Origin: a virus
Taxonomy: Duplodnaviria > Heunggongvirae > Uroviricota > Caudoviricetes
DNA length: 7,513 nt
Strand: one strand, 5' to 3'
IMG/VR virus record: IMGVR_UViG_2698536348_000008
Coordinates: 1 to 7,513 of that record
The notes under the pieces were generated by a model. It saw nothing but the letters and a program-made list of their open reading frames with translations. It ran no database searches and was not told where the DNA came from. The position numbers and the translations under genes were made by a program. The first letter of the stretch is position 1; each line of letters starts with the position of its first letter. Below, piece after piece: positions 4,399 through 6,344 of this stretch.

Positions 4399-4632
4399 AT
4401 GGATAAAAATGTAGAGCATGTATTAGTTGATGCAATTGAAAATAAGCAATCTTTAACAGTCGTTTACTTAGGAGGGAGCCAGCCCGGAACATTAAGGAAT
4501 ATTTCTCCGATTAGTATAAATGGGGATAAATTGCGGGCAAGATGCCATAGTTCTGGAGCAGTAAAGGTTTTCAATCTTGGGAAAATACAGTTACCCAGTG
4601 ACTCCTGCGCGGTATCTATGCACTATGGAGAT

Positions 4633-4636
4633 TTAG
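4633..4636. repeat. IS5 target-site duplication, left copy (TTAG)
   Basis: TTAG immediately outside the IS5 left terminus; an identical TTAG flanks the right terminus. IS5 makes 4-bp duplications at YTAR-type targets (established). Confidence 0.85.
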
Positions 4637-4652
4637 GGAAGGTGCGAACAAG
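4637..4652. repeat. IS5 left terminal inverted repeat
   Basis: GGAAGGTGCGAACAAG; its partner at 5816-5831 reverse-complements to GGAAGGTGCGAATAAG. Confidence 0.9.
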
Positions 4653-4704
4653 TTCCTGATATGAGATCATCATATTCATCCGGAGCGCATCCCAGAGGGA
4701 CATC

Positions 4705-5685
4705 ATGAGCCATCAACTCACCTTCGCCGATAGTGAATTCAGCACTAAGCGCCGTCAGACCCGAAAAGAGATTTTCCTCTCCCGCATGGAGCAGATTTTG
4801 CCATGGCAGAATATGACCGCTGTCATCGAGCCGTTTTATCCCAAGGCGGGCAATGGCCGACGGCCCTATCCGCTGGAGACCATGCTGCGTATTCACTGCA
4901 TGCAGCATTGGTACAACCTGAGCGACGGTGCCATGGAAGATGCCCTGTACGAAATCGCCTCCATGCGCCTGTTTGCCCGATTATCCCTGGATAGCGCCCT
5001 GCCGGATCGCACCACCATCATGAATTTCCGCCACCTGCTCGAGCAGCATCAACTGGCCCGTCAATTGTTCAAGGCCATCAATCGCTGGCTGGCCGAAGCA
5101 GGCGTCATGATGACCCAAGGCACTTTGGTGGATGCCACCATCATTGAGGCACCCAGCTCTACCAAGAACAAAGAGCAGCAACGCGATCCGGAGATGCATC
5201 AGACCAAGAAAGGCAATCAGTGGCACTTTGGCATGAAGGCCCACATTGGTGTCGATGCCAAGAGTGGCCTGACCCACAGCCTGGTCACCACCGCGGCCAA
5301 CGAGCATGACCTCAATCAGCTGGGTAATCTGCTTCATGGAGAGGAGCAATTTGTCTCAGCCGATGCCGGCTATCAAGGAGCGCCACAGCGCGAGGAGCTG
5401 GCCGAGGTGGATGTGGACTGGCTGATCGCCGAGCGTCCCGGCAAGGTAAAAACCTTGAAGCAGCATCCGCGCAAGAACAAAACGGCCATCAACATCGAAT
5501 ACATGAAAGCCAGCATCCGTGCCAAGGTAGAGCACCCGTTTCGCATCATCAAGCGGCAGTTCGGCTTCGTGAAAGCCAGATACAAGGGGCTGCTGAAAAA
5601 CGATAACCAACTGGCGATGTTATTCACCCTGGCCAACCTGTTTCGGGTGGACCAAATGATACGTCAGTGGGAGAGATCTCACTAA
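4705..5685 (+). CDS. insH: IS5 transposase InsH
   Basis: 326-aa translation [37 protein letters not shown] ... RQWERSH matches IS5 InsH almost residue-for-residue (memory). Confidence 0.95.
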
Positions 5686-5815
5686 AAACTGGGGATAACG
5701 CCTTAAATGGCGAAGAAACGGTCTAAATAGGCTGATTCAAGGCATTTACGGGAGAAAAAATCGGCTCAAACATGAAGAAATGAAATGACTGAGTCAGCCG
5801 AGAAGAATTTCCCCG

Positions 5816-5831
5816 CTTATTCGCACCTTCC
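5816..5831. repeat. IS5 right terminal inverted repeat
   Basis: CTTATTCGCACCTTCC, inverted complement of the left terminus with one mismatch. Confidence 0.9.
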
Positions 5832-5835
5832 TTAG
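5832..5835. repeat. IS5 target-site duplication, right copy (TTAG)
   Basis: TTAG immediately outside the IS5 right terminus, identical to 4633-4636. Confidence 0.85.
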
Positions 5836-6344
5836 AAGTTAAAGCTTATGAGACGATGCAGAGCGTAAATGACAACTTTCATGCCCTTTATCCTGAAGGA
5901 CGATGGGGTGTTGATTTTAATGAGCATCGCTTTGCTTTATTTGATTTTTTTAAAAACGGGAAACGAAAAAAAACGGCATTTATGGCAATTGAGTTCAGGG
6001 AAAGAGATGAAGAGAAAATAATAACAGGTGTAACAATTGATATTGGTATATCTGGAACAGTGATTTCTGAGAAGTCCCGAATCCCAAAAAGACGACCATG
6101 GGTAGTGGTTGGTCCCGAACACGGAGAATACAGTACTTATTCAACTTTGGACAAGGCTGCTACAGCGTTTTTTGAGAGGCTTTCGTTGATAGCATCCGGC
6201 CTGGAAGATAATTGATTTTATGTTTGGTATTCAGAGTTCGCCGTGCTTAAGAAAGTCAAGATTCTAAAAATACTGAATGAGCTACTTGTGTTATAACAAA
6301 AATGCTATTAGTGTGTTAAGAGTGGTTACTTCGCCACACAACTT

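Follow-up and report, generated by a model that had tools for sequence, protein, structure and literature searches.

The subject of this analysis is a 7,513-nucleotide stretch of DNA from a Caudoviricetes virus (IMG/VR record IMGVR_UViG_2698536348_000008, positions 1 to 7,513; hereafter the window), in which a gene lying just after the antiterminator gene Q is interrupted at codon 80 by an IS5-type insertion sequence (IS). Taking out the element together with one copy of its TTAG target-site duplication, and fusing positions 4399–4636 to 5836–6215, yields an in-frame open reading frame (ORF) of 618 nt encoding 205 amino acids, the same peptide that had been reconstructed in an original prediction made from the letters of the window. 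In 51 of 5426 complete E. coli genomes an intact annotated gene matches the rejoined DNA at all 618/618 nt (100% identity), one example being that of strain S88 at 572136–572753 (WP_000360285.1); the annotations read either 'hypothetical protein' or 'WYL domain-containing protein'. Because the IS5 element splits it, the gene in the window is a pseudogene of a single-gene phage accessory cassette. As argued below, the family to which it belongs is a large, unstudied group of phage- and integron-borne WYL proteins that lack a helix-turn-helix (HTH). We propose, with a probability of roughly 0.4, that the intact protein would act as a lysogen-expressed, single-protein sensor of single-stranded DNA (ssDNA) for phage exclusion or abortive defence.

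IS5 elements are about 1.2 kb long, with 16-bp inverted repeats, one DDE transposase of about 326 residues and a 4-bp YTAR target duplication. The element in the window fits all of these traits in its size, its TTAG duplication, its imperfect 16-bp terminal inverted repeats (15/16 matched; GGAAGGTGCGAACAAG / GGAAGGTGCGAATAAG) and its plus-strand transposase ORF of 326 aa (4705–5685). Thousands of near-identical copies occur across E. coli genomes. None of the 5426 complete E. coli genomes has the junction with the window gene, which makes this IS5 allele private. In the AlphaFold2 (AF2) model of the protein the insertion point falls within a predicted flexible interdomain linker. The 5′ fragment encodes a complete WYL domain (helix 3–15; strands 19–23, 31–41, 44–49 and 54–59), and the 3′ fragment encodes the end of the linker and a family-specific C-terminal domain (CTD). 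After the insertion, the ORF at 4399–4659 specifies an 86-aa WYL-only fragment whose last 7 residues are IS-encoded, while that at 5856–6215 specifies 119 aa starting from Met87 and covering the whole CTD. Either leftover ORF could still be expressed.

The rejoined gene has 39.6% GC, against 51.7% upstream and 52.3% downstream, in keeping with the AT-rich composition noted by the original prediction, and its leader is poorer still in GC (Table 1). In S88 the identical copy also sits directly after Q. Upstream of it are genes for a Dam-like methylase, a LexA-family protein, RusA, a KilA-N protein, a DUF968 protein and Q; downstream follow a 65-aa ORF, a 235-aa HTH-domain protein, three tRNAs, a SASA-family esterase and the lysis genes. 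In other prophages the same slot is either empty, as in CP087377 (L136; L and P numbers are our own labels), where the Q stop codon is followed by 20 bp and then the conserved module, or taken by other cargo, as in AP042706 and CP031134, where a 148-aa ORF on the opposite strand carries a lipobox-like LISGC motif and matches PHROG 3152 (function unknown). By this comparison, in which the slot is empty or holds a lipoprotein-like ORF or the window gene, the slot is truly variable and 4324–6296 is a discrete cassette that can be exchanged. The original prediction had placed the gene where lambdoid phages carry cargo such as stx. A variable accessory slot just after Q is indeed present, but it is not the stx slot itself, because it lies upstream of a conserved small-ORF/methylase/tRNA module. 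The segment 6297–6840 of that module is ~87–94% conserved in ~3000 E. coli genomes, O157:H7 included, whatever the Q type, and contains, just 3′ of the cassette, the first terminator-like hairpin after the gene. A second E. coli allele of the gene, 72–73% identical, is common, and both alleles follow Q.

Homologues of the protein are numerous. When a five-sequence profile was compared with 1.84 billion cluster representatives (clusters at 50% identity), it matched 957 at E≤1e-3, of which 607 remain at E≤1e-10 and 192 at E≤1e-30. The 957 matched proteins are nearly all 187–210 aa long (about 195) and align end to end. The protein itself aligns with 205/205 positions of PHROG 8498 (E 2.9e-126), a phage protein family without an assigned function. 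In some protein analyses P0001, which is 99% identical to the rejoined peptide, stood in for it. NCBIfam returned nothing beyond generic WYL; the only PADLOC-DB v2 matches were to generic Cas-associated WYL models (E 1.4e-3 and 6.6e-3), none being to a model of a described or candidate defence protein; and a BFVD fold search found no full-length or named match. Literature searches by accession, locus tag or PHROG identifier returned nothing, and the mentions of WYL checked in papers on prophages, hotspots, integrons and domain-centric discovery proved to be only citations, the unrelated HTH-WYL regulator VC1772 or a generic HMM label. Family diversity was captured in a 111-sequence alignment. 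A 5-sequence alignment found 4 loci in GTDB genomes, and a degenerate DNA pattern (Y-x-GGSQPG-xx-R-xxx-P) recovered more loci than the alignment-based searches.

Could the reconstructed ORF be a non-functional remnant, decayed or spurious? The gene is interrupted in the window, and frameshifts or truncations affect several other E. coli copies: those in the IMG/VR prophage contigs L055, L056 and L065, and P0003 and P0006, are split or frameshifted into 77–140-aa pieces. Because of these copies, the gene seems to have been inactivated repeatedly and by different routes, unless some of the cases are assembly errors. However, intact homologues were sought and found, in the form of 51 genomes with identical copies and 957 length-conserved clusters. 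Moreover, comparison of the two E. coli alleles gives a ratio of nonsynonymous to synonymous substitution rates (dN/dS) of 0.22, with a dS of 0.83, which points to purifying selection on the family, and the protein yields a structural model with a predicted local distance difference test score (pLDDT) of 86. Meaningless decay is thereby refuted for the family, and we regard this explanation as close to negligible; the window copy is nonetheless a pseudogene.

The N-terminal part of the protein was recognized as a WYL domain by several approaches. Pfam PF13280 (WYL) aligns with residues 8–64 of the window protein below threshold (16.5 bits vs a 21.8-bit cutoff; E 0.0085) and matches 41 of 111 homologues at E≤0.01, the best at E 4.8e-8. 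In a search of the PDB, the family profile matched DriD (7U02, 7TZV, 8TP8) at E ~1e-4 and BrxR at E 0.01–0.02. The AF2 model generated from the 111-sequence alignment (pLDDT 86.4) has an Sm/SH3-like small β-barrel starting at residue 19, preceded by an α-helix. The motif Y23-x-G-G-S27-x-P-G-x-x-R33 aligns (HMMER) with DriD Y168-E-G-G-S172-T-P-G-R176-T-R178, such that Y23, S27 and R33 pair with Y168, S172 and R178. In the DriD–ssDNA structure Tyr168, Ser172 and Arg178 are named as phosphate contacts (PMC10853764), and the Y168A and R176A-R178A mutants of DriD lose activity (PMC10853764); CapW binds ssDNA essentially as DriD does (PMC11662680). Among the 111 sequences Y23, G26, R33 and K56 are invariant (111/111 each), S27 is present in 103/111, K62 is K/R in 99%, and K44, R46 and R48 are K/R in 65–76%; C49 is a conserved, buried residue of the barrel. 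This pattern, with basic residues on the strands that come after the motif, fits a ligand site, and by homology to DriD and CapW the most probable ligand is ssDNA or a nucleic-acid backbone resembling it. Therefore, the pattern recognition by which the original prediction had read a WYL/SH3-like barrel at residues ~18–65 is borne out by the fold and the conserved contact residues.

The CTD (residues 87–204) is modeled as an α-β5-α domain: helix 87–97, strands 104–107, 111–117 and 123–133, a variable low-confidence insert (134–165), strands 168–171 and 178–181, and helix 184–204. Its conserved positions are W103, the loop F-K119-N-G121-K-x-x-K125 (FKNGKxxK), R166-P167-W168 (R-P-W), A187 and F191; the FKNGKxxK and R-P-W stretches are basic/aromatic loops. 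A catalytic signature, that is, a conserved Asp/Glu/His/Cys pattern, was not found in the CTD in the family alignment; with no such pattern, and with C49 a buried barrel residue, an enzymatic effector was rejected. When the CTD-only profile was run against the PDB, only marginal matches emerged (1ylx, E 0.043; Csx28, E 0.11), which we treated as chance. The scores for a frataxin/CyaY-like α-β sandwich and for YugN-like 1YLX are marginal and speak of fold resemblance only, and the window protein shares neither the iron-binding acidic ridge nor another functional motif of frataxin/CyaY. Against a set of 5.8 billion proteins, the same profile detected the domain solely within this family and revealed no new architectures.

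Characterised WYL proteins are mainly ligand-gated transcription factors, and a few assist Cas13d or regulate a helicase. DriD of Caulobacter crescentus is a chromosomal transcription activator composed of a winged HTH (wHTH), a three-helix bundle, a WYL domain and WCX, whereas the window protein is phage cargo without a wHTH, a three-helix bundle or a recognisable WCX; the WYL domain of DriD (residues 134–245) is also bigger. The window barrel superposes at 1.1–2 Å over ~67 residues on those of CapW and BrxR, the wHTH-WYL-WCX repressors of CBASS and BREX (7TB6, 9C5G, 7QFZ, 7T8K), and shares with them a conserved Ser and Arg/Lys on the ssDNA-binding face. Both groups are linked to phage–bacterium conflict. 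However, CapW and BrxR repress by binding DNA and their genes lie upstream of the operons under their control, whereas the window protein has no DNA-binding domain or conserved neighbor: Pfam, NCBIfam and fold searches found no HTH or other DNA-binding domain, the fold matches covering ~70–86 residues, and across ~18 contexts no conserved neighboring operon was seen of the kind that accompanies wHTH-WYL-WCX factors. Judged from its sequence, the protein cannot work in the manner of those factors, because it has no DNA-binding HTH. It resembles in this respect the HTH-less minor classes of a nine-class scheme, which likewise have a WYL domain without a wHTH, make up <10% of WYL proteins and are essentially uncharacterised (PMC10853764).

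It is thus very unlikely that the protein is a conventional WYL transcription factor regulating its neighbors, as BrxR, CapW, DriD and PafBC do. Such a role might be expected given that most characterised WYL proteins are transcription regulators (PMC10853764) and that the WYL domain in question is closest to those regulators. Yet no more than 18 residues lie before the barrel, no HTH was detected, and the neighbors are not conserved, which argues against a regulated operon. A transcription-factor role is therefore disfavored.

The genomic surroundings of intact homologues, whose survey had been proposed as a check, place the gene in accessory slots, repressor operons, an integron and a possible defence island. 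Clustering of the family genes from the collected loci at 90% identity gave 20 distinct types, with further loci added later; ~18 contexts had flanking DNA enough to read. No conserved partner gene was found across them, and a toxin–antitoxin pair was rejected on this ground; the gene travels as a single-gene mobile cassette. In five contexts, representing three independent arrangements, it lies directly 3′ of, and co-oriented with, a phage repressor or repressor-like gene. In L014-16 the preceding gene encodes a 129-aa HTH_3 protein and a CII-like gene is divergent; in L140 a gap of 18 bp separates it from a CI/Peptidase_S24 repressor, and the divergent genes are YdaS and CII-like; and in L067, L068 and L098 it follows homologous 138–152-aa ORFs with weak matches to PHROG transcriptional repressors (E 4e-6). 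Elsewhere it is found beside integrases and LexA-like repressors (Pseudoalteromonas phage PY3, L075 and L088) or upstream of Rha regulators. One member resides in a 209-kb cyanophage record. The pooled neighbor families are mainly Peptidase_S24, integrase, YdaS/Cro, Rha and HTH_3.

Two further contexts are not of this kind. L139 (1–10756) is a chromosomal integron array with 14 attC-like repeats (TAACAAA...GCGTTA), in which the family gene (4693–5268) is a single cassette bounded by attC-type repeats; the array also carries PhdYeFM/ParE toxin–antitoxin, DUF4365, DUF2441, three GNAT acetyltransferases and an AbiTii protein. At 673–5365 of L008, a contig of a Leucothrix metagenome-assembled genome, a same-strand run directly upstream of the family gene encodes an OLD/AriA/NsnB-like ATPase, a PDC-S15-like protein, an NsnA/PD-T4-2_A-like protein and a RiboL-PSP HEPN protein, and on the strength of these matches looks like a compact defence island. 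The placement beside repressors recalls lambda RexAB, in that several lineages share an accessory gene directly 3′ of and co-oriented with the prophage repressor while other copies occupy moron slots. The likeness is one of gene position only: there is no sequence or fold relationship, and the window-type protein is one soluble polypeptide, with a membrane anchor in some relatives only.

The position next to repressors raises another explanation, namely that the protein is a prophage-intrinsic sensor of DNA damage which, once bound to ssDNA, would inactivate the repressor of its own phage as an SOS-independent anti-repressor, or would tune the lysis–lysogeny decision. The small repressor or repressor-like ORFs directly 5′ of the gene in L014-16, L067, L068 and L098 (129–152 aa) are compatible with this explanation; where Pfam matched them, it detected HTH only and no Peptidase_S24 domain. 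There may also be an analogy with CapP, which, as PMC13228613 describes, is stimulated by ssDNA and acts on CapH. On the other hand, a Peptidase_S24 autocleavage domain is already part of the L140 repressor, the S88 copy is ~8 kb from the immunity region, the integron-cassette and defence-island copies have no cognate repressor, and prophages that are otherwise alike can lack any gene in the slot after Q. On balance we consider an anti-repressor quite improbable.

In other viral contigs the GGSQPG-type WYL barrel is joined to different modules. Transmembrane segments were read from sequence by hydrophobicity, and Pfam membrane-family matches were weak; the assignments are accordingly putative. 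They comprise C-terminal two-helix transmembrane hairpins in L080, L081, L085 and L086, N-terminal transmembrane segments in L074 and L105, and a membrane anchor before the whole WYL+CTD module in L098 and in representatives P0127, P0141 and P0144. P0089 is a zinc-ribbon fusion, and PY3 and L075 share a ~170-aa extension without a Pfam match (PHROG 31886). Some proteins with a WYL domain and hydrophobic segments contain CxxC pairs, and one 660-aa protein has two WYL copies around a Fib_succ_major domain.

Table 1. Features of the window and of related contigs (positions are those of the window unless an L number is given).
Feature	Position	Strand	Remarks
5′ leader of cargo cassette	4324–4398	+	75 bp, 25% GC; starts directly after Q stop codon
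5′ gene fragment	4399–4636	+	Codons 1–79 and first base of codon 80; ATG at 4399
Left target-site duplication TTAG	4633–4636		4-bp direct duplication
IS5-type insertion sequence	4637–5831	+	1195 bp; same strand as disrupted gene
Right target-site duplication TTAG	5832–5835		4-bp direct duplication
3′ gene fragment	5836–6215	+	Rest of codon 80 to stop at 6213–6215
3′ flank of cargo cassette	6216–6296	+	Homology shared with gene-less lambdoid prophages restarts at 6297/6298
Terminator-like hairpin	6345–6369	+	8-bp G+C-rich stem, 6-nt loop, T6; fold −13.8 kcal/mol
73-aa ORF	6468–6689		PHROG 331; one homologue annotated TrmB-family
Second terminator-like site	6676–6693
DNA methyltransferase gene	6840 onwards		Preceded by conserved segment 6297–6840
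Alternative cargo, 148-aa ORF with signal peptide	L137 1962–2408	−	Slot after Q
Alternative cargo, 148-aa ORF with signal peptide	L138 1966–2412	−	Slot after Q
WYL-hydrophobic fusion gene	L085 4447–5685	−
WYL-hydrophobic fusion gene	L086 2332–3402	−
WYL-hydrophobic fusion gene	L086 3414–5396	−
WYL-hydrophobic fusion gene	L080 7466–8884	−
WYL-hydrophobic fusion gene	L081 3856–5379	+
WYL-hydrophobic fusion gene	L074 1234–2520	−
WYL-hydrophobic fusion gene	L105 6497–7108	−
WYL-hydrophobic fusion gene	L098 8567–9304	+

As for expression signals, the transcript of the cassette is predicted to fold into a hairpin at 4355–4403 (−23.4 kcal/mol, z −3.8, with 0 of 200 shuffles as stable). Its 5′ arm lies in the leader, and its 3′ arm holds the Shine-Dalgarno sequence GGAGG (4389–4393) and the start codon. 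The 73%-identical allele retains the hairpin, a C-to-U change yielding a G·U pair. It may gate the translation of transcripts that read through from the Q operon. A sigma-70 promoter scan gave no convincing promoter for the gene (3 sites vs 4.8 expected). Rfam and tRNA scans of the window gave no match. Far from the cassette, at 49–92, a 12-bp unit (TACAGAGATTAC) is repeated 3.7 times in the 3′ end of the first, truncated ORF and encodes a TEIT peptide repeat; its location upstream of the methylase, RusA and Q genes suggests that the repeats are iterons of a replication-protein gene.

How, then, might the intact protein work? In the reading that we prefer, exclusion or abortive defence, the WYL barrel would bind ssDNA or a similar nucleic-acid ligand arising from an invading or replicating element, or from damage. 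The basic loops of the CTD would probably close over the WYL pocket, as WCX does in DriD. The output would be non-transcriptional, through either ligand-driven oligomerisation or a host or phage target engaged via the CTD, and in the sister proteins transmembrane segments may take the output role of the CTD. Sensor and effector would thus be combined in one protein, which, when expressed from the prophage, would help the lysogen to exclude or abort other phages, or invaders that produce ssDNA. We favor this reading because positions in repressor operons, next to integrases, in an integron and in a defence island are typical of genes that serve the lysogen. The overall interpretation offered in the original prediction, a candidate undescribed accessory or defence gene, is supported.

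The same pocket is open to the opposite interpretation. An HTH-less WYL protein could be a decoy that soaks up the ssDNA produced during replication or induction, such that CapW, BrxR, CapH/CapP and RecA-LexA fail to trigger immune operons. The match of its ssDNA-contact residues to those of the host sensors DriD and CapW, the lack of an output domain, the phage-borne nature of the family and its member in the cyanophage record would all suit a decoy, and the position directly after Q in E. coli could allow co-transcription in lytic development. However, the placements on which we base our preference are typical of host-benefiting rather than anti-defence genes, and relatives fused to transmembrane segments are hard to square with a sponge. 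We therefore view a decoy as unlikely.

For the window itself the message is the smaller one, of a dead gene with a private IS5 allele (0/5426 complete genomes). The wider observation is an ssDNA-binding-type pocket in a short protein without a DNA-binding output, spread over at least 957 sequence clusters, and a single gene that moves through prophage moron slots, repressor operons and integron cassettes. If the protein is an exclusion or defence factor, a very compact, portable sensor–effector would join the anti-phage repertoire, and a recurrent 'hypothetical' gene of E. coli lambdoid prophages, including that of the extraintestinal pathogenic E. coli (ExPEC) strain S88, would be explained. 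If instead it is a decoy, it would be the first phage counter-measure against WYL-controlled immune regulation. More generally, though we advance this tentatively and with some doubt, PHROG 8498 and its relatives may constitute a new class of one-protein, non-transcriptional ssDNA-sensing immune modules of temperate phages and integrons, in which a DriD-type barrel would detect ssDNA from invaders and act directly via the CTD, a domain not described before, or, in sister proteins, via transmembrane hairpins. In that case WYL domains would be front-line sensors fused to effectors and not only regulators of other systems. Either way, the family provides a tractable 205-aa test case for WYL signalling without an HTH.

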